From a virus (Duplodnaviria > Caudoviricetes): a stretch of DNA of 31,604 bases. The position numbers were made by a program, and so were the translations under genes. The stretch is from the IMG/VR virus record IMGVR_UViG_3300033067_001394, positions 1-31,604 of that record. One strand, given 5' to 3'. The notes under the pieces were generated by a model. The model was not told the origin of the DNA. It made no database searches and saw nothing but the letters and a program-made list of their open reading frames with translations. Below are positions 22,849-31,105 of this stretch, one piece after another; position 1 is the first letter of the stretch, and the number at the start of each line of letters is the position of its first letter.

Positions 22849-24447
22849 CTAGGTCGGCGGGGTGCCGAAGCCCTCGGCGGCGCTCACGGGAGGCGGCTCG
22901 GCGGCGATGCCCGCGGCGGCGGCCTGGCGCCGTGTCAGCGGGTGAAACGTGGCCCGGCAGTTGAAATGCCTGGGTGGGAAATTCTGCCGCCACCACGCAT
23001 GGTCGGCGGGCAGGATGGTGCCGTTGGCGACCTTGCACCCGCTCGTGGTGCGGCCGTCGACCACGGCGTCAAACTGCCAGTACGGCCGCATCGCCAGCGT
23101 GTCCGGGTCGGTGGCCTCGGCGTGGCGCCCGGCGTTGTATGCACAGTTGCTAATGAGCAATCGTTGTGATACATACCAGCCCCCCTCGGTCTGAAGGTCG
23201 TAGACATGACCCCTGAAAAACCCGTACCCAATCTCAACGATTTGATCCGTCGTTATGAGTCCGGAGCTTCCGTGAAGGAGCTTGCCGATGAAGCCGGGAT
23301 CGGCGCGCCCGCGCTGACGCGCAGGTTCCGAAATGCTGGCGTCAAGATTCGAGGCCGGGCCGAGGCACGTCGACTGAAGGTTGCCCTGCCAGATGAGACG
23401 CAACGCATCATCGTAGAGCGCTACAAGCGAGGCGAGAGCGCCCCTGCACTGGCGAAGCAACTCGGGCTGACCACCTGGCAGGTCTATGGCTTCCTGAAGA
23501 GCATTGGCCAGAGCCGGCGAAGCGCGTCGGATGCCAAGGTTGCCGAGTGGGCGGCCCTGCCAGATCAGGCCAAGGCCGCTCGCGTTGCCACCATGGCTCC
23601 AGCCTGGGGCGCCATTCGAGGCCGGCGTGTTCCGCTGGAGGAGAAGATCAGGGCCGCGAAGACTCGGTACGAGCGGCTGCTGGGACGCGGAGAGGGCGAG
23701 GATGAACTCGCGAACGCAATCAAGGATCTTGGCCTTGACGTTGCGCAGCAGTTCGCCATCGGACCTTACAACGTCGACATAGCCATCCGTTCGAGCCGCA
23801 TCGCCGTGGAGGTCGAGAGGCCCAAGAGTCCGACTCACGGTTCGTCCAGGCTCACTAGCCAGAGAACGAAATACATCCTCGATCAAGGCTGGACGGTCCT
23901 GTTCGTTTTTTTGAACAAGGCCAAGCGCGGGTCCACCGTCGATGCCGCCAGCGCGAGCAAAGACGTTGTCTCCATTGCGGAGATGCTGCGCGGCGACGAA
24001 TCCGTAAGGGGTAAGTACGGGGTGGTTGGGAGTAACCGTGAGGTGTCGCCCGGATTTTGTTCGAAGCTGAAGAACATCCCCCGCATACCTGGCTTTTGAC
24101 GCCGCAACGAATCGCCCCTCAACCGTCTGCCCGGGGACAAGACACTGCACGTTGGTGCGAAAGATGGTCTCCAGCCGGCTGGCCGGGTTGCCCTTGCTGC
24201 CGACCCACTCGGACTGAAGCTTCTCGCCCACCGCGGCCTTGAACGCTTCGAGGTCGGTGCCCTGTTCGAGGGCGCTGTCCAGGGCCGCCTGGACGCTGGC
24301 GATCAGGTCGAGCTGCGCCGTGCCCGCGACCGTGAAGGCCCGTTTCTTGGCCTCGTCGGTCAGCGCGTCGTACTTGTCCTTGGGCATCGCCAGCCGCTTC
24401 CGGTGCCACTCGATGGCGGCTTGGGGTGCGGTGGGCGATGGGGGCAT
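22849..24447 (-). CDS. MuF/gp30-like minor head protein interrupted by an intein
   Basis: RAFTVAG, RLETIFRTNVQ | CAYNAGR, PYWQFDAVVDGRT and WW..NFPP.HFNCR motifs. The spliced product would be 199 aa. Confidence 0.92.
   Translation of the reverse strand: MPPSPTAPQAAIEWHRKRLAMPKDKYDALTDEAKKRAFTVAGTAQLDLIASVQAALDSALEQGTDLEAFKAAVGEKLQSEWVGSKGNPASRLETIFRTNVQCLVPGQTVEGRFVAASKARYAGDVLQLRTKSGRHLTVTPNHPVLTPYGFVAAQHLRNGDNVFARAGGIDGGPALGLVQKNEQDRPALIEDVFRSLASEPGRTVSRTLGPLDLHGDAARTDGYVDVVRSDGELLRNVKAKILDCVREFILALSASQQPLVPSLRGPDLLLQRNTPASNGAPGWSHGGNASGLGLIWQGRPLGNLGIRRASPALANALQEAIDLPGGQPELLRQCRGALASLVALYDDALRLIWQGNLQSTCLGPASNLDASISEPARQRGRADPGFIGKLLHGSSGLITTDQIVEIGYGFFRGHVYDLQTEGGWYVSQRLLISNCAYNAGRHAEATDPDTLAMRPYWQFDAVVDGRTTSGCKVANGTILPADHAWWRQNFPPRHFNCRATFHPLTRRQAAAAGIAAEPPPVSAAEGFGTPPT
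23146..24144 (-). mobile_element. Intein, 333 aa
   Basis: Block A CLVPGQTV (C1 codon 24142-24144), block B LTVTPNHP, block F HVYDLQT, block G LLISN followed by Cys+1. Removing it restores the MuF motif RTNxxxAYNAGR. Confidence 0.93.
23206..24099 (+). CDS. HTH-HTH + DUF559/Vsr-like endonuclease, antisense within the intein
   Basis: ATG with GAAGGT 7 nt upstream. Two repeats RRYESGASVKELADEAGIG / ERYKRGESAPALAKQLGLT, then E..L...G....Q..IGPYNVDIAI...IAVEVE...R...I...GWTVL. Confidence 0.82.
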   Translation: MTPEKPVPNLNDLIRRYESGASVKELADEAGIGAPALTRRFRNAGVKIRGRAEARRLKVALPDETQRIIVERYKRGESAPALAKQLGLTTWQVYGFLKSIGQSRRSASDAKVAEWAALPDQAKAARVATMAPAWGAIRGRRVPLEEKIRAAKTRYERLLGRGEGEDELANAIKDLGLDVAQQFAIGPYNVDIAIRSSRIAVEVERPKSPTHGSSRLTSQRTKYILDQGWTVLFVFLNKAKRGSTVDAASASKDVVSIAEMLRGDESVRGKYGVVGSNREVSPGFCSKLKNIPRIPGF

Positions 24448-24834: not shown

Positions 24835-25104
24835 TCACCACAGGACCGTGATCTTCTGCGCCGTGGTGGTGGCCGAGATGATCGCCAGGGCCTGGATCAT
24901 GATGGTCTCGCCATCGACCAGACCGGAGATGGTAACCGAGGCACCGTCACGGGCGCGGGTGACGGTGAGGTCGCCGCCGGTCCCGATCCGGATGGCCCGG
25001 CAGGGGCCGCGCGCCGTCTCGAACGTGACGTTGCTGACGAGGGCGCCGCTGGTCGCATAGCTCTCGAAGTCGGGGCTGGAGATCAGTTTGTCAGCGAGGC
25101 TCAT
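24835..25104 (-). CDS. Head spike base protein-like (RcGTA Rcc01079 type)
   Basis: 89 aa; RAIRIGTGGDLTV...DG..VT...G....I......TTA..I..LW pattern recognised from memory. Confidence 0.65.
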   Translation of the reverse strand: MSLADKLISSPDFESYATSGALVSNVTFETARGPCRAIRIGTGGDLTVTRARDGASVTISGLVDGETIMIQALAIISATTTAQKITVLW

Positions 25105-27079
25105 CGTGGTTCTCCAGAGCGCGCACGGCGTTGCGGCCGGCGAGCTGCGACAGCACCAGGGCGTGCTCGGTCACCTGGGCCAGCTCGGTCGGGTTCAGGT
25201 CGGTGGCCGCCTTGCTCAGCGCGGCGCGGATCTCGTCGTAGGACTTGGCCCCGTCGAGCGACGCCAGGACCGCCTGTACCGTGGGCGCCATCGCCTTGGC
25301 GGCGCGGTCCCGGGCGATGCTGCCCACGTCCTCGACGAAGGCGCCGGCCTCGACCGCGGGGGCCGGGGCGCGGACGGCCAGCGCGTGGACGTGGCGCGAG
25401 GTGGTCTCGGCGGCGTCCATTTGCTTGGTGAGCTTGTCGGCCCACGCGCGGCCGGGGTCGCCGCCCCACAGGGCCCAGGCGATGCGACCGGCCGACGGGT
25501 AGCCGTCCTCACCGGGTGACCAGCCCTCGCCGCTCTTGTCGGCCTCGTGGCGAGCGAAGTAGGACGCCATGCGCCGCGCCGTGTCCGGGCTGACGCTGCG
25601 CCCGTTGGACAGGTCGCGAGCGCGGGCCACGCCGACCTCGGTGCCACCGCGGCCGTATTCGTCGCGCCAGTCGAGCCCGCGCTGGGCCTCCTCGCGCACG
25701 CCGTCCGGGGGGCTGAAGTCAATGTGATCGAAGCGCCCGAGGGCGTGGCGCGAGACCGCGTCGGCCTGCGGGCCCACCGGGGCGGCGTCGTCGGCTGCCG
25801 GCGGTGGCGGGGGTGCCACCGGGGCAGGCGGGGCGCCGGGGGGCGCCACGGCCACGGGCGGCGGCTCCTCGCCGGGCTCGTGCAGGGGAAGGTTGTAGCT
25901 CGCCAGCAGCGCCCGGCGGTCGACCCACGGGGCGACCTGCGCCAGGTTCAGCAGGGCCGTGGACAGCGACACCAGCGTGTCGGCCTTGAGCTTGCCGTCA
26001 TCCGGCGGCTCCACGTCGAAGCGGAGCACCGGGGCAAGGTCCGGGTCGCCGTAGTTGAAGGCGGCCCACGCGCGCAGCACCTGGCGCCGGAACCCGGCCA
26101 CCAGCCCGCGCTCGTCGGCTTCGAGGTAGTCCTGCCGCACCTGCCCGTGGACCTTGGCCGCGGCGAACGAGCCGCCGCTGACCTCGGTGGTGAGGTTCTG
26201 ACCGAGCAGGGCGAGGGTGATGCGCTTGTCGGCGTCCTCGGTGGCGTTGCGAAAGGTCTCCCACCCGGTCGCCGTGGCCTCGACCAACTCGATGTCGTAC
26301 TTCTGGCCGTCGATGCCCGTCGGGCACGAGACGACCATGGCCGAGCCGGCGTCACGGATGTCTTGGAAGAATCCGATCTTGTCGTCTTCCGTGGTCTGCG
26401 ACGGGATCGTGGCCTTGCGGATCGGCAGGCCATAGATCTCATTGAACCGCATCCAGTCGCGGAATGCGTATTGCCTGCCGAGCCAGGGTATGGCGATGCT
26501 GCGCACGGCGCCCTGAATCCAGGCGCGGTACTCACCCTCGGGGGTCAGCAGCAGCCACTTGCCATCGCCGGGGGTCACCGCCACCGGCCCCTCGCTCGTG
26601 TTGAGCATGTACTGGCGGGTGGCCCAATTGAACCACAGAAACTGCGGGTGCCAGACCTTGAGCGAGAACGACCACGCGGAAGCGTCGCCGGTCCAGAGGA
26701 TCTCGGCCACGGCGAAGCCCATCATCACCTGCCAGCGCAGGAGCTGGATCATCGACTCGGTCAGGTCGGTCTCGGCCCACAGGGTCTCGAGGTCCTTGGC
26801 CGCGGTCTTGGCCTTGCGGCGGTCACCGCGCGGGCTCGGGGTGATCTCGCGCGGCAGGCCCAGCAGGCCCTTGCACCGGGTGTTGAGCGCGGTGGCGACG
26901 CGGTCATCGCGCTGCACCGACTCGCTCAACTGGGCGCTGAGGAGAAACTGCCCGAGGTCGTGGTTGTCCAGCGCCTGCTGGATCGAGACCGTGCCCCACG
27001 AGCCGGTCCAGGCCATGACCGGCATGTCCTTGCGGACCTGCGTGTCAGGCGAGCGGGGCAGCGTGGGCGGGGTGGTCAT
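25091..27079 (-). CDS. Portal protein (Mu gp29/DUF935) with an inserted extra domain
   Basis: GFAVAEILW, DWMRFNEIYGLP and ITLALLGQNLTT..GGSFAAAKVH..VR motifs; follows TerL. Confidence 0.93.
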   Translation of the reverse strand: MTTPPTLPRSPDTQVRKDMPVMAWTGSWGTVSIQQALDNHDLGQFLLSAQLSESVQRDDRVATALNTRCKGLLGLPREITPSPRGDRRKAKTAAKDLETLWAETDLTESMIQLLRWQVMMGFAVAEILWTGDASAWSFSLKVWHPQFLWFNWATRQYMLNTSEGPVAVTPGDGKWLLLTPEGEYRAWIQGAVRSIAIPWLGRQYAFRDWMRFNEIYGLPIRKATIPSQTTEDDKIGFFQDIRDAGSAMVVSCPTGIDGQKYDIELVEATATGWETFRNATEDADKRITLALLGQNLTTEVSGGSFAAAKVHGQVRQDYLEADERGLVAGFRRQVLRAWAAFNYGDPDLAPVLRFDVEPPDDGKLKADTLVSLSTALLNLAQVAPWVDRRALLASYNLPLHEPGEEPPPVAVAPPGAPPAPVAPPPPPAADDAAPVGPQADAVSRHALGRFDHIDFSPPDGVREEAQRGLDWRDEYGRGGTEVGVARARDLSNGRSVSPDTARRMASYFARHEADKSGEGWSPGEDGYPSAGRIAWALWGGDPGRAWADKLTKQMDAAETTSRHVHALAVRAPAPAVEAGAFVEDVGSIARDRAAKAMAPTVQAVLASLDGAKSYDEIRAALSKAATDLNPTELAQVTEHALVLSQLAGRNAVRALENHDEPR

Positions 27080-28512
27080 GTCGGGCGGCGGATCTGGTCG
27101 CGGAACTTGTCGAGGTCGGAGCGGGACAGGCTGGGCGCGGCCAGGGCGTCGTAGGCCGCCGCCATCGCGTCGATCTGGTCGTCGTGCCGGTCCTTCTGGC
27201 CCGTGAAGATGCGGACCTCGGACACGAATGCCGACGCCCAGGCGGGCGTGGACGGGGGCAGGAACACGCGGCCGTCGTTCCAGGCAGCGGCGACCGGCTG
27301 CGCCCGGATGAACTTGTCCGCGACGGCGGGCTTGGCTTCGATGCTGAGGCGGGCCTTGCCGTCGGCCGACAGGTTCATCAGGTCGACCACGCCGCGCTCG
27401 GTACCGCCCACGTAGGCAACCATCCGGGCCGTCGGGTACTGCTGCTGCAACGCCCGCAGCCGTTCGGCAAACACGGGCGCCGGGGCCTGCATCCGGTGCA
27501 GGTCAAGGATGTAGAACTTGCGACCGACCTCGGCCATGACCACCGCGACCGAGTAGTCGCTGGAGGTCTTCTCGGTGTAGGCGAGGTCGATACCGATGAC
27601 GACGCGGTAGCCAGGCGGCGGCGAGGCCAGATGCACGTCGCCGAAGACGCTGCCGCCCTTGGGGCGGGGGCGCTGGTCGTACAGGCTGGCCCAGTCGTAC
27701 GGGCCCACGTCGCGCTTGCGCTCTTCGAGGAAGTCGGCCGGCATGTACTCCGGCCACAGCGCCTCGCCGGGCTGCCGCGGGTCGCCGGGGTCGGTGCCAT
27801 CGGCGATGGCGCGCAGTTCGACGACCTCCCAGGACTTGCCGCTGTCCCCCTCGCGCAGCCACCCGATCAGGTCGTCCGGGTGCCAGCGGGTATGCACCAC
27901 CAGCACCGACGCCTGCGGGTGAACGCGGGTCATGGCGGTGGAAGTCCACCAGCCCTTGATCTCCTCGCGGATAACGGCGCTCTCGGCCTCGGCCCGGTTC
28001 TTGTGCGGGTCGTCGACCAAAAGCACGCCATCGACCGGATTGCCCGTGAGGGGTCCCCCGACACCCGTGGCAAGCAGCCCGCCGCCGGCCGTGGTCACCC
28101 ACTCGTTGACCTTGTTGGCGTCGTCGCGGAGCTTGACCCCGGCGGCCAGGGTGTAGTCGCGCGCCAGCCGGCTCTTGGTAAAGGCGAGCTGGGCGGCATA
28201 CGAGGCGTAGGCGTTGCGGAGGTGCGGCTTGCGCCGCAGCAACCACGCCAGCGCGTGCAGTAGCGTCTCGGTCTTGCCGTGCTGCGGCGGCACGCTCACC
28301 AGCGCCCGGACCCGCTCGCCTTGCGCGATGCGCTCGAACAGGTCGGTCAGCCTGGCGAGGTGCCGCGGGCTTGACCACCGCGGGGTGACCGCAGGGATAA
28401 AGTCTTGAAGGGGGCCAGCGAGGCGGCGGCGGCGCCGCAACTCTAGCTCAGCCTGCGCCTGGATCTTCGGCGTCGGTCGAATGACCCGCGGCGAGTGCGG
28501 CGAGTTGTTCAT
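27076..28512 (-). CDS. terL: Terminase large subunit (start uncertain)
   Basis: Walker A VPPQHGKT, Walker B LLVDDP, TRWHPDDL, nuclease IGIDLA and HDDQIDA. Confidence 0.95.
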   Translation of the reverse strand: MNNSPHSPRVIRPTPKIQAQAELELRRRRRLAGPLQDFIPAVTPRWSSPRHLARLTDLFERIAQGERVRALVSVPPQHGKTETLLHALAWLLRRKPHLRNAYASYAAQLAFTKSRLARDYTLAAGVKLRDDANKVNEWVTTAGGGLLATGVGGPLTGNPVDGVLLVDDPHKNRAEAESAVIREEIKGWWTSTAMTRVHPQASVLVVHTRWHPDDLIGWLREGDSGKSWEVVELRAIADGTDPGDPRQPGEALWPEYMPADFLEERKRDVGPYDWASLYDQRPRPKGGSVFGDVHLASPPPGYRVVIGIDLAYTEKTSSDYSVAVVMAEVGRKFYILDLHRMQAPAPVFAERLRALQQQYPTARMVAYVGGTERGVVDLMNLSADGKARLSIEAKPAVADKFIRAQPVAAAWNDGRVFLPPSTPAWASAFVSEVRIFTGQKDRHDDQIDAMAAAYDALAAPSLSRSDLDKFRDQIRRPT

Positions 28513-28915
28513 CCGTGAGCTTGGAGACATCGACGGTCTGGATCGGCCCACCGTTGGGCCCGCTGATCTCGGCCCGGCTCACCGTGCCCCACCGTTTCGG
28601 GTACTTGCGCTCCAGCCGCCACGCAGCCGCGCGCCAGTCCTCGGCCGCGGCCTTGCTGACGGCGAGCACGTCGCGCATCTCGGCCTGCGCCGTGGCCTCG
28701 TGGACCGCCTCGACGAACTCGGCGTAGATGGTGCCCGGGTACTTGTTGCCGCGCTTGAGCCAGCGGTACAGGGTCACCTTGTTGATGCCGGCCGCGGCGG
28801 CGGCGGTCTCGACGTAGGCGCCGGCCCGGATGGCGTTGACGATCTTGGCTTGCCGTTCCGGCGTTAGCCGTGTCTTGCGCCCGGGCTTACCCTTGGGCTT
28901 GTCGGCAGGGGGCAT
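28448..28915 (-). CDS. Terminase small subunit-like HTH protein
   Basis: GRKTRLTPE...AAAAAGINKVTLYRW, WRAAAWRLER and EISGPNGGPI motifs; directly upstream of TerL. Confidence 0.8.
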   Translation of the reverse strand: MPPADKPKGKPGRKTRLTPERQAKIVNAIRAGAYVETAAAAAGINKVTLYRWLKRGNKYPGTIYAEFVEAVHEATAQAEMRDVLAVSKAAAEDWRAAAWRLERKYPKRWGTVSRAEISGPNGGPIQTVDVSKLTDEQLAALAAGHSTDAEDPGAG

Positions 28916-29639
28916 CTTCGTCAGTCAGTTGGAGCGCCGGGATCGGAGTCGCACCGTCCCCTCCTGCTTGGGTGGCAGGCGTGCCGCTGTCTGCACATCC
29001 GGCGCGTAGGATCTTTTTCGGGTAGGGCTTGGACAGGGGCGTGATTCGGTCACGCATGTCGCTGTCCAAGGGCATCAGATACGTGTGCTTTCCTGGCATT
29101 TTTCTAGAAGGAAGATCACGCCACTTATGGGCGCCAGAAGGGTCTGACTTGCGTTTGCCTTGACCAAACGCCCCATAAGTAACCTCACGAGAATGTTTCC
29201 ACCGGCCCTCGTGGAGATATTGCGTGCTTTCGCCAGACCTGCCTACATAGGTCCAACTGCCACCCTGGTAAATGCCACCGTGATGACCTTCGCTTGGGTC
29301 AGCGTAACTCACAACAAGGCGAATGCCGGGTGCATTCTTGCGCAAGAAACGGAGCGCGATGGCGACCACTCTGGTTACCGGCGTCTGGTGCTCTCGCAAT
29401 GCAACGCGCACCAGTTCGCAGCACTCTGTTTGAGTCAGGCCATAGGGCGAACCGATATTCTGGTTTGCCCCGCGAGAGAAAAGAACGCAGCCGATGTATT
29501 TGCCATCTTCCCACGCTCCGATCTTGACGAGTGGCGGCATGGGCAGGCGCTTGGAGTAGTGCCAGTTTTCCACGGCGTACTTGGCCGCCTCATGGGTGCA
29601 CCAGTCCACCTTGAGCGTGGGCTTACTTGCGGAACTCAT
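28887..29639 (-). CDS. Mom-like (GNAT-fold) DNA adenine modification protein
   Basis: HYS, ELVRVAL, LVVSYADPSEGHHGGIYQG.SW.Y.G, K..Y and YPK motifs characteristic of the Mom family; start MSSASK at 29639. Confidence 0.85.
   Translation of the reverse strand: MSSASKPTLKVDWCTHEAAKYAVENWHYSKRLPMPPLVKIGAWEDGKYIGCVLFSRGANQNIGSPYGLTQTECCELVRVALREHQTPVTRVVAIALRFLRKNAPGIRLVVSYADPSEGHHGGIYQGGSWTYVGRSGESTQYLHEGRWKHSREVTYGAFGQGKRKSDPSGAHKWRDLPSRKMPGKHTYLMPLDSDMRDRITPLSKPYPKKILRAGCADSGTPATQAGGDGATPIPALQLTDEDAPCRQAQG
28930..29005 (-). tRNA. Non-canonical tRNA-Gly(CCC)-like element, 76 nt, with encoded CCA
   Basis: GCGCCGG AT GTGC AGACAGCG GCAC G CCTGC CACCCAA GCAGG AGGG GACGG TGCGACT CCGATC CCGGCGC T CCA. 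Perfect 7-bp acceptor, 4-bp D and 5-bp anticodon stems; the T stem has a one-base bulge. Confidence 0.78.
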
Positions 29640-30165
29640 GGCCACAGTTGGGGCAGGAGATGGGCTTGATGGAATCAAGGTCTCCTTGGTCGTCCTCTGT
29701 CCCAGGCAGGAAGTCAGGAATGCTCGCGGCCATCTTGTCCAGTTCGGCTGAGTCCCACCCGGCCAGGGCGGCGTCGTCCAGCCCGTACTCGGACAGGATG
29801 CGCGCGACCTCGCCCGTGTCCCACTCTGCCTTCTCGTTGAGCTTGTTGTCAGCGAGTGCGAGCAGGTGCGCGTCGGCCGGGTCCAGGTCCAGGTAGCGCA
29901 CGGGTACCCGGGTCAGCCCCAGGGACTCAGCAGCCAGGATGCGGGTGTGGCCGGCGATGATCTCCCCGTCTGCCCGCCGGGCCAGGATGGGGGCGCCGAA
30001 GCCAAACCGCTTCATGCTGGCCGCTACCGGGGCGACGGCTGCCTGGTTCTTGCGCGGGTTGCGGTCCCACGGCTTCAGGCTCTTGATCTCCACCCACACC
30101 GCGGCCGGCTCCGGGTGGGCCGTGTCCTGCGGTGCAATCGGTGCGCTTACGTTGCTTTTTGCCAT
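29623..30165 (-). CDS. ParB/Srx N-terminal domain protein
   Basis: LKPWDRNPRKN, SMKRFGFGAPI, IIAGHTR and LADNKLNE motifs; C-terminal CPNCGHEF. Confidence 0.9.
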   Translation of the reverse strand: MAKSNVSAPIAPQDTAHPEPAAVWVEIKSLKPWDRNPRKNQAAVAPVAASMKRFGFGAPILARRADGEIIAGHTRILAAESLGLTRVPVRYLDLDPADAHLLALADNKLNEKAEWDTGEVARILSEYGLDDAALAGWDSAELDKMAASIPDFLPGTEDDQGDLDSIKPISCPNCGHEFRK

Positions 30166-30284
30166 GGATGACCACGGCGGCGGATCGCGCGTACACGTCC
30201 CGCCACCCTTCCTGCGGTGGCATGACGGGGGTGTGCGCGCGGCGGCGCCGACCCCCACAGCCCCTAAAGAAGAAAAGCGGACCT

Positions 30285-30313
30285 GTGGCAGTCCGTGGCA
30301 GTCCGTGGCAGTT
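30285..30313. repeat. Tandem 10-bp direct repeat GTGGCAGTCC, about 3 copies
   Basis: gtggcagtcc gtggcagtcc gtggcagtt, intergenic, upstream of the late operon. Confidence 0.85.
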
Positions 30314-30536
30314 ATTCGCCCAGCCGGTTGACCTGCAACGCCAGGACAATCGAGGCCCACCGCTCCGGGTTCTGCGCCTGCACCGTGGCCAGGTAGATCA
30401 CACGGCGCCCCCCTTCCCTGCCGGTCTGGAGCGTCCCCCGGTCGGCCTGCCGGCGTACGGTCCCGATGGGCGTGCCGGTCATGTCGGCGTACTCGCGCAG
30501 GGTGTACCAGGGCTTGATGTGAAACCCCCGGGTCAT
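30312..30536 (-). CDS. Small Xis/MerR-like winged-HTH DNA-binding protein
   Basis: ATGA-coupled start at 30536; YTLREYADMTGTPIGTVRRQADRGTL...GGRRVI. Confidence 0.75.
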   Translation of the reverse strand: MTRGFHIKPWYTLREYADMTGTPIGTVRRQADRGTLQTGREGGRRVIYLATVQAQNPERWASIVLALQVNRLGE

Positions 30537-31105
30537 GGCCGCAGGGTCGCCCCCTCGACCTTGGCCCGGCGGGCGGTGGCTGCCGCGCGGGCCTCGTCCC
30601 GGTAGGCGGCCGAGGCCCCGACCAGCGCGATCCTCGCCTCTTGCCGCAGGTTGGCCAGCCCCGCCACGGCGGCAGCCTGGTCGTCGGCGTGGCCGCTGGC
30701 CTTCTGCTTGCGCAGCCACTCCCGCAGGGTGTCCCGGGCGACGTGGTGGCGCTGGGCGGTCAGCAGCACCAGGGACACGGACAGGGTGCCGGCGCGCAGG
30801 GGCGCCCACTCCGCGGCCCCTGCGGCGGGCTGGCCGGGGCCGAGGGCGGCGCGCAGGGTGACGCGGTGGCGGGGTTCCAGGGCGTCCAGGATGCGCGTGA
30901 TGCGCTTGGCGCGGGTGGCGGCGTGGTAGGCGACCTCGGACAGGTCCGGGGTGCCAGACTGCACGGCTGAGGCCCGGCCTTCGGAGAGGCGGTCGAGCAT
31001 CGGGCCGAGGGACGACCGGAGGCCCATGAGCCCCTCGGCGTCGTTGTAGAGCCAGATCAGGTCGGCCTCGTCCAGCGGGTCCAGGCGGGTATCGGCGATC
31101 AGCAT
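30533..31105 (-). CDS. Hypothetical helical protein (possible late regulator)
   Basis: 190 aa, coupled to the HTH gene; CATGAT lies 6 nt before its ATG. Confidence 0.65.
   Translation of the reverse strand: MLIADTRLDPLDEADLIWLYNDAEGLMGLRSSLGPMLDRLSEGRASAVQSGTPDLSEVAYHAATRAKRITRILDALEPRHRVTLRAALGPGQPAAGAAEWAPLRAGTLSVSLVLLTAQRHHVARDTLREWLRKQKASGHADDQAAAVAGLANLRQEARIALVGASAAYRDEARAAATARRAKVEGATLRP

Follow-up and report, generated by a model that had tools for sequence, protein, structure and literature searches.

A degenerate tRNA-Gly-like RNA within the 3' end of phage Mom-family genes, a candidate dedicated glycyl donor for DNA modification

The locus analysed here raises the question of whether a phage DNA-modifying enzyme can carry, within its own gene, the RNA that supplies its glycyl group. 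It is found in a 31.6-kb linear virus record that is 59% complete, hereafter referred to as the window (the whole stretch of DNA that was analysed). According to the available text of PMC13219725, phage Mu's Mom enzyme transfers glycine from Gly-tRNA-Gly to the N6 of adenine in double-stranded DNA, and the product rearranges to 6-NcmdA and serves restriction evasion; the enzyme accepts all three E. coli tRNA-Gly isoacceptors and rejects Gly-tRNA-Ala. A sequence-only reading of the window had named Gly-tRNA as a reported donor for Mom, which is borne out for the Mu enzyme by this source, and had proposed that the phage co-expresses a private tRNA-Gly with its Mom-like gene.

The window exhibits the gene order ParB-N, mom, terS, terL and Mu-type portal, followed by head and contractile-tail genes. 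The Mom-family GNAT ORF (28887..29639, minus strand, 250 aa) is directly preceded by a ParB-N domain gene (29623..30165, minus strand), which overlaps its start. Upstream of Mom, a ParB gene is likewise present in Appa, phiEf11, Wyborn and L382, and in Martha with one gene in between. Downstream, the gene of the terminase small subunit (terS, 28448..28915, minus strand; phrog_4102, E 1e-38) is overlapped by the Mom tail, and is followed by terL (27076..28551, minus strand; Terminase_6N/6C) and the Mu-type portal gene (25091..27079, minus strand; Portal_Mu, 202 bits). No sigma-70-like promoter was seen in 28700-30600, and no informative repeats were found. A terminator-like hairpin is present at 30278-30295 (minus strand), just upstream of the ParB-N gene, with three such sites observed for 1.3 expected. 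The GC content of the Mom coding region (29010-29600) is 54-59%, against 64-79% in its neighbours, as for a separately acquired module.

With regard to the protein, the Mom-like GNAT identity claimed from the sequence holds. Residues 9-208 match PF25680 with 148.3 bits (cut-off 27.1) over model positions 2-202 of 202, the ORF falls in phrog_1384, and the sequence of the Mu Mom crystal structure (PDB code 8bv8) is matched with an E-value of 2.9e-11. The predicted fold (pLDDT 85.9) gives 8bv8_A and 8bv8_B as top Foldseek hits (E 9.9e-13, TM 0.63/0.70), the next hits being at about 1e-4. The window ORF belongs to the Mom family, with a GNAT fold closest to that of Mu Mom, and 4739 database proteins match it at E ≤ 1e-10. 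It shares with Mu Mom the family, the fold and the C-terminal YPK, with an identity of 27.5%. In contrast, the Mu protein ends at YPK without any RNA and draws on host tRNA-Gly, whereas the window ORF embeds the RNA, and Mu mom sits after gin/com, whereas the window mom lies between ParB-N and terS. Residues H58, Y59, R111, D149, Y159 and W181 (Mu numbering) are conserved in the window Mom, S124 is replaced by a threonine, R151 by a serine, and W48 by a glutamate. In 87 aligned Mom rows, H58, Y59, R111, D149, Y159 and S/T124 are near-invariant, and R151, W48 and W181 vary. As R151 is unconserved in every RNA-linked Mom clade, and W48 is likewise variable there, these two residues are specific to Mu rather than family-wide. 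R151 is described as essential in Mu Mom, the R151A variant being inactive (PMC13219725, available text), and its replacement by a serine in the window counts against assuming an identical chemistry. The Mom domain ends at the YPK codons (29024-29016). The C-terminal ~42 residues are read across the RNA, and disorder is predicted for them, with pLDDT values below 50 at residues 216-238.

The RNA itself is a 76-nt degenerate tRNA-Gly-like cloverleaf with a CCC anticodon, located at 28930..29005 on the minus strand and recognised from its sequence, its fold and its covariation among relatives. The 5' strand of its 7-bp acceptor stem (28999..29005) pairs with 28940-28934 and comprises G1-C72, C2-G71 and G3-C70. 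It is followed by A8, a 4-bp D stem lacking G18G19, and an anticodon arm (28963..28979) with a 5-bp stem, A33, and C34-C35-C36 at 28972-28970. The T arm (28941..28958) exhibits a loop starting with UGC and an A (28943) that bulges out between pair 50-64 and pair 51-63, and the discriminator U73 and an encoded CCA (28930..28933) complete the molecule. The sequence-only reading had described this cloverleaf, from 29005 to 28930 and ending in U-CCA, with the glycine identity elements (C35/C36 and U73 included) retained and the decoding features lost, and each of these features was found again. It had also placed the RNA a few codons after YPK and taken the rest of the protein to be solely its translation: the first part stands, as the RNA begins 10 nt past the YPK codons, and the second does not, as the ORF continues for 40 nt beyond the CCA to a stop that overlaps the terS start, itself located 14 nt past the CCA. 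The RNA is present in a single copy in its record. ARAGORN called no tRNA gene in the window, Rfam gave no tRNA match there up to E 5, and the folding energy of the single sequence is unremarkable (z -0.57; 51 of 200 shuffles as good). As the single sequence folds no better than chance, the significance of the RNA rests on its relatives. In two wastewater metatranscriptomes of one study, one contig each covers 28739-29091 and 28781-29093, spanning the RNA together with the end of mom and the start of terS; as ends, strand and level are not visible in these contigs and they may derive from DNA, they were not counted as support for expression.

The best 80 of 114 viral Mom relatives, with 49-66% identity, were retained, which gave 81 loci with the window. 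An element closed by GCG..CGC is present right after YPK in 79 of them, the exceptions being L006, which lacks it, and L075, whose contig ends inside the gene. The search required the three pairs of GCG..CGC and preferred U-CCA among candidates, and the GCG..CGC criterion is weak by itself, since 22% of random windows exhibit it. As a control, a perfect 7-bp GCG..CGC stem with U73 at most 160 nt from YPK was observed in 77/81 loci, compared with 71/7502 random windows of the same loci. The 59 distinct elements measure 67-76 nt. The 20 homologous elements of 76 nt align without gaps, with 96.9% of the cells paired and compensatory double changes at 15 of 21 pairs; in the T arm, all cells (100%) are paired and 4/5 pairs exhibit double changes. 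None of 500 shuffles reaches the main scores, which exceed all six slid controls (34-42% paired), kinship alone being able to beat shuffles on percent paired and less so on pair counts. In 26 shorter elements, the acceptor, anticodon and bulged T stems are kept, the D hairpin is absent, and 11/18 pairs covary. The model built from the 76-mers recovers 58 of 61 sources, 20 of which are its training set. Existing tools mostly pass over these RNAs: only 2 of 57 related loci were called by ARAGORN, and the Mom-linked element exceeds the RF00005 gathering score in only 2 of 14 loci tested. The sequence-only reading expected homologues to exhibit conserved, covarying stems, an NCC anticodon and U-CCA together with a poorly conserved peptide; all of these were found, the peptide being read in three frames. 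One of the loci, L016, exhibits two equal-scoring copies of the element (1312-1381 and 2023-2092), 711 nt apart, from a duplication or an assembly repeat.

The residues kept by these elements differ from those lost. The bacterial glycine identity set consists of G1-C72, C2-G71, U73, C35 and C36 (PMC9976931, available text). U73 is present in 59/59 distinct elements and the CCA is encoded in 48/59, 11 being without it. The 58 elements that could be parsed all exhibit an NCC anticodon loop, with ACC in 33, UCC in 21, CCC in 3 and GCC in 1; the size and the flanks of the anticodon loop vary widely, and the CC is kept. U8, U33 and the elbow formed by the D and T arms serve decoding. A uridine is found at position 8 in 2/58 elements and at position 33 in 17/58, the T-loop TTC in 5/58, and a T-stem bulge in 55/58; 35/58 are shorter than 73 nt and without a D arm. 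Among the 20 76-mers, G18G19 is present in 2, and A58 and the bulged A in all 20. The commonest anticodon corresponds to tRNA-Gly(ACC), reported as banished from nearly all organisms in the available text of PMC6720975. In six window genes, GGC accounts for 100/156 glycine codons and GGG, which CCC would read, for 30/156. The pairs 49-65, 50-64 and 51-63 set the affinity for EF-Tu (PMC3239215 and PMC7826273, available parts), and the T-stem bulge falls within these three pairs. The bulge probably weakens EF-Tu binding; the available text of PMC3239215 makes no mention of the term "bulge". The family can be regarded as a natural experiment on how small an RNA can be and still be charged with glycine.

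The link with Mom was also approached from the RNA, with a query consisting of the bulged T arm and the 3' end alone, so that the bulge and U-CCA are built into the resulting set. At least 120 viral and at least 120 metagenome contigs match this pattern. Among the matches listed, a Mom gene lies near 209/240 loci, i.e. 112/120 viral and 97/120 metagenome loci. The RNA family counts at least 251 distinct natural sequences. With a profile of close homologues, Mom was detected near 72/80 fully fetched viral loci among the matches listed, and 39/39 lower-scoring Mom neighbours exceed the Pfam cut-off. With three clade profiles, again among the matches listed, Mom is in the flank of 75/80 and 37/40 viral loci and of 66/80 and 31/40 metagenome loci; these profiles were made from the viral neighbours of the 75/80 set and are independent for the other sets only. 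In the two sets of 80, 19 loci are without Mom in the flank: nine are cut by contig ends, three lack a cloverleaf and appear to be chance matches, L262 has an incomplete element next to a transposase-like ORF, and in L162 the Mom core and the 5' part of the RNA are deleted together. L123 and L223 represent a single element, the viral record of which exhibits Mom ~1.3 kb upstream, and L276, L281 and L287 are complete elements with full flanks and no Mom in the 1.2 kb around them. For the sets of 40, each of the 12 misses has less than 400 nt on both sides. Two of these loci deserve mention in their own right. In L123 (935-2868), the order is Mom, a glycosyltransferase-like gene, the RNA and terS, with a possible second DNA-modifying enzyme between Mom and the RNA, and in L281 (~1154-1229, RNA orientation), a bulged ACC-type RNA with a near-canonical D arm precedes a long ORF on an AT-rich marine contig.

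Several arrangements of the RNA are observed. In clade A, which ends in YPK and includes the window, and in the distant clade B, the RNA is located in the 3' ends of the Mom genes; clade B is sister to Mu with an SH-aLRT of 99 in a quick unrooted tree. The cloverleaf and D-armless forms are intermixed in both clades, with 19 changes each, and this mixing suggests exchange of the RNA. In a looser group, the RNA lies just ahead of Mom; most of these RNAs have U8 and UCC, with anticodon loops of 4 or 6 nt. Tandem pairs are found at L125, L176, L247, L252 and L278, and the RNA is antisense to Mom in Appa and L109. Such upstream, antisense and tandem placements are as expected of a diffusible product. 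Nine cultured phage regions were opened: the RNA follows Mom in Martha, Wyborn, Pan3 and B2_17, and Appa exhibits a near-canonical tRNA-Gly(CCC) on the strand opposite to Mom. Only Appa and B2_17, among the cultured phages bearing the RNA, have the element annotated. The near-canonical members of L018, L059, L082, Appa and Wyborn are called tRNA-Gly by ARAGORN. In L109 (35-586), the RNA converges with a GNAT-like ORF, whose 3' end it faces and which resembles homing-endonuclease-fused families and, weakly, Mom. In L137 and L175, a D-armless form follows a Mom with a tail that matches protein P0050, attributed by a source to Burkholderia ambifaria (157-kb contig), so that the system reaches sequenced bacterial genomes.

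The RNA is not universal among Mom loci. The RNA model, which detects the window record, gave no hit in five records (Mu, VSiP, phiEf11, pAEv1818 and L006), the RNA was found in 0 of the 27 Mu-clade loci fetched out of 45, and no RNA was seen at L085, L087 and L382. The RNA is dispensable, as Mu Mom works with host isoacceptors and several Mom relatives lack it. Of the private tRNA-Gly proposed earlier, the linkage with Mom is therefore upheld and the exclusivity is not: given the use of three host isoacceptors by the Mu enzyme and the existence of RNA-less relatives, the RNA may be a booster rather than a requirement. The need for it may depend on the host. Loss of the RNA in Mu is inferred only, as the quick tree is unrooted. 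Two Bacillota-hosted, clade-A-like Mom loci, L089 (phiEf11) and L382 (a Lactobacillus amylovorus record), have kept the upstream ParB and lack the RNA.

A further characteristic concerns the reading frame through the RNA. The Mom tail reads the RNA in all three frames (28, 19 and 12 of 59), and conservation by codon position is flat within the RNA (0.76, 0.73 and 0.72), compared with 0.81, 0.88 and 0.54 in the last 23 Mom codons. Nevertheless, the Mom frame crosses the RNA without a stop in 57/59 elements, against 50/118 for the other frames, and in 30/32 against 29/64 after thinning to 80% identity. Among the matches listed of the RNA-first sets, the values are 74/82 against 72/164 in clade A and 51/60 against 47/120 in clade B. 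In the same vein, a T-stem variant that spells TGA is present in 13/24 of the short elements in which it falls outside the Mom frame and in 1/11 of those in which it would fall within it. Of 54 loci with a called ORF, 23 exhibit an overlap of 1 or 4 nt between the Mom stop and the following start, and 12 a deeper one, figures that have no null control. As the frame is kept open although the peptide is unconserved, read-through is maintained, and this sequence evidence indicates selection for an open frame across the RNA. The three frames, the flat conservation and the low pLDDT rule out that the tail is a conserved functional peptide. Many annotated Mom C-terminal tails are by-products of an overlapping RNA gene. 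The read-through would be explained by any one of translational coupling with terS, shielding of the packaging mRNA against cleavage, or an either-or decision, transcript by transcript, for enzyme or donor. The large family, with its D-armless, upstream, antisense and tandem forms, and the selection on the frame go beyond the sequence-only reading.

A tRNA-dependent transferase served by a non-ribosomal tRNA is a kind of system that is already known. In S. aureus, ordinary Gly-tRNA is kept away from FmhB by EF-Tu, whereas non-proteogenic tRNA-Gly species with TGC/TGT loops escape it; the available text of PMC7826273 describes such dedicated tRNAs as known from staphylococci alone. These species, NP1-NP3, are donors for FmhB, FemA and FemB and, in the available parts of PMC7826273 and PMC3239215, share with the window RNA the glycine identity, TGC/TGT instead of TTC, and an altered T stem. 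They are paired with a tRNA-dependent GNAT-fold transferase, as the window RNA is with Mom, and provide a working model for it. However, NP1-NP3 are free-standing genes of the staphylococcal chromosome, all with UCC and with a T stem weakened by A49-U65, U50-A64 and A51-U63 (PMC7826273, available text), whereas the window RNA exhibits CCC, G-C, A-U and C-G pairs and a bulge, and is not of staphylococcal lineage. More generally, the phage RNAs carry ACC, UCC or CCC, are bulged and often D-armless, are located in the enzyme gene or next to it, and their target would be DNA rather than the cell wall. With canonical tRNA-Gly (RF00005; Appa and Salinibacter phage B2_17), the window RNA has in common the cloverleaf, the length of 76 nt and the identity elements of acceptor and anticodon; the family shades into near-canonical members, and the window RNA, unlike canonical tRNA-Gly, is below Rfam and ARAGORN detection. 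We found no publication linking a phage-encoded tRNA-Gly to Mom in a search that covered subscription journals thinly. By term search, no such link appears in the available text of PMC13219725, its preprint and PMC7824862, and the supplementary homologue data of PMC13219725 may bear on it. What appears to be new here is a candidate non-ribosomal tRNA for a transferase that is viral, directed at DNA, and encoded inside the enzyme ORF. Also new is a Mom frame that is kept free of stops through the RNA although the peptide is unconserved.

RNase P cleaves tRNA precursors, and tmRNA tags messages without a stop. We consider it probable that the RNA is a dedicated glycyl donor for Mom, shielded from the ribosome: the glycine marks that are kept, the ribosome marks that are shed, and the tracking of Mom across clades and orientations are best explained in this way. 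RNase P and 3' trimming would release the RNA from a late ParB-mom-terS-terL transcript, the CCA would be added after release where it is not encoded, and the host GlyRS would charge the released RNA with glycine. The T-stem bulge would keep it off EF-Tu, leaving a free pool of Gly-RNA reserved for Mom, which would use it off the ribosome to modify adenines in phage DNA. With less support, each transcript might be either translated through, which would give Mom and pass ribosomes on to terS, or cut into the donor and a stop-less mom fragment. Such a choice, suggested by the location of the Mom stop beyond the RNA, would set the ratio of enzyme to donor.

The position of the RNA within an ORF at the mom/terS junction, the frame kept open and the overlap of the Mom stop with the next start (23/54) would also suit a cis-acting mRNA element, such as a GlyRS-binding or RNase P site, which controls Mom or terS, for example by sensing the glycyl supply, and is never a donor. 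This seems unlikely, as members of this RNA family are also seen upstream of Mom, antisense to it (Appa, L109) and as tandem pairs, as U73 and an encoded CCA are charging requirements, and as the amino acid matches the known donor of Mom. We give somewhat less credit still to a decoy or buffer, not a substrate of Mom, that absorbs defences directed at tRNA-Gly (anticodon nucleases, acetylating toxins) or offsets the drain of Mom on Gly-tRNA. The variable size and flanks of the anticodon loop around the kept CC are compatible with it, as are the binding of Gly-tRNA-Gly by TacT and the use of the host pool by Mom (PMC13219725, available text), but it gives no reason for the tracking of Mom in 209/240 listed loci and in several clades, and the pool for translation cannot be replenished by a non-decoding RNA.

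That the RNA is a functional, if unusual, phage tRNA-Gly supplementing translation is highly improbable, even with some members that are near-canonical and called by ARAGORN or annotated (Appa, B2_17). Most members lack U8, U33 and TTC and exhibit the T-stem bulge, 35/58 are D-armless, and the commonest anticodon, ACC, is the one reported absent from nearly all organisms (PMC6720975, available text). The CCC of the window would, moreover, read only the GGG codons, 30 out of 156. tRNA genes are common integration sites, and no integrase was found among the scanned window proteins, the record being 59% complete so that one could lie elsewhere. A decaying att-site remnant of a host tRNA-Gly, raised as a caveat by the sequence-only reading, nevertheless has a negligible probability: the cloverleaf is whole, with compensatory changes and a shared derived bulge, and its place within one of the ORFs of the packaging module is fixed. 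It is also present in Appa, listed as lytic with one tRNA, as the only tRNA of this phage (PMC7302621, available text).

Going beyond the role as a dedicated donor, one gene may give both an enzyme and its RNA cosubstrate, the carrier having shrunk to a 68-nt D-armless form, been swapped between Mom clades and been lost in Mu. We hold this broader reading tentatively, at slightly under even chances; if true, the textbook enzyme of Mu would be the exception. The glycyl donor of Mom has become known only recently, as a host tRNA, and a dedicated RNA is a candidate answer to the competition with EF-Tu. It would, if true, extend the principle of non-ribosomal tRNAs to viruses and DNA chemistry. 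Standard tRNA finders mostly miss this RNA family, and cultured carriers are available: Arthrobacter phages Martha and Wyborn and Microbacterium phage Appa.

A last observation concerns the head genes of the window. The Mu F-like head morphogenesis ORF (22849-24447, minus strand) exhibits an Intein_splicing match over residues 116-422, below the cut-off, and an ORF for an HTH and DUF559-type nuclease (23206-24099, plus strand) lies antisense within it. Together, the two ORFs resemble an intein-like insert that bears an endonuclease gene in antisense orientation.
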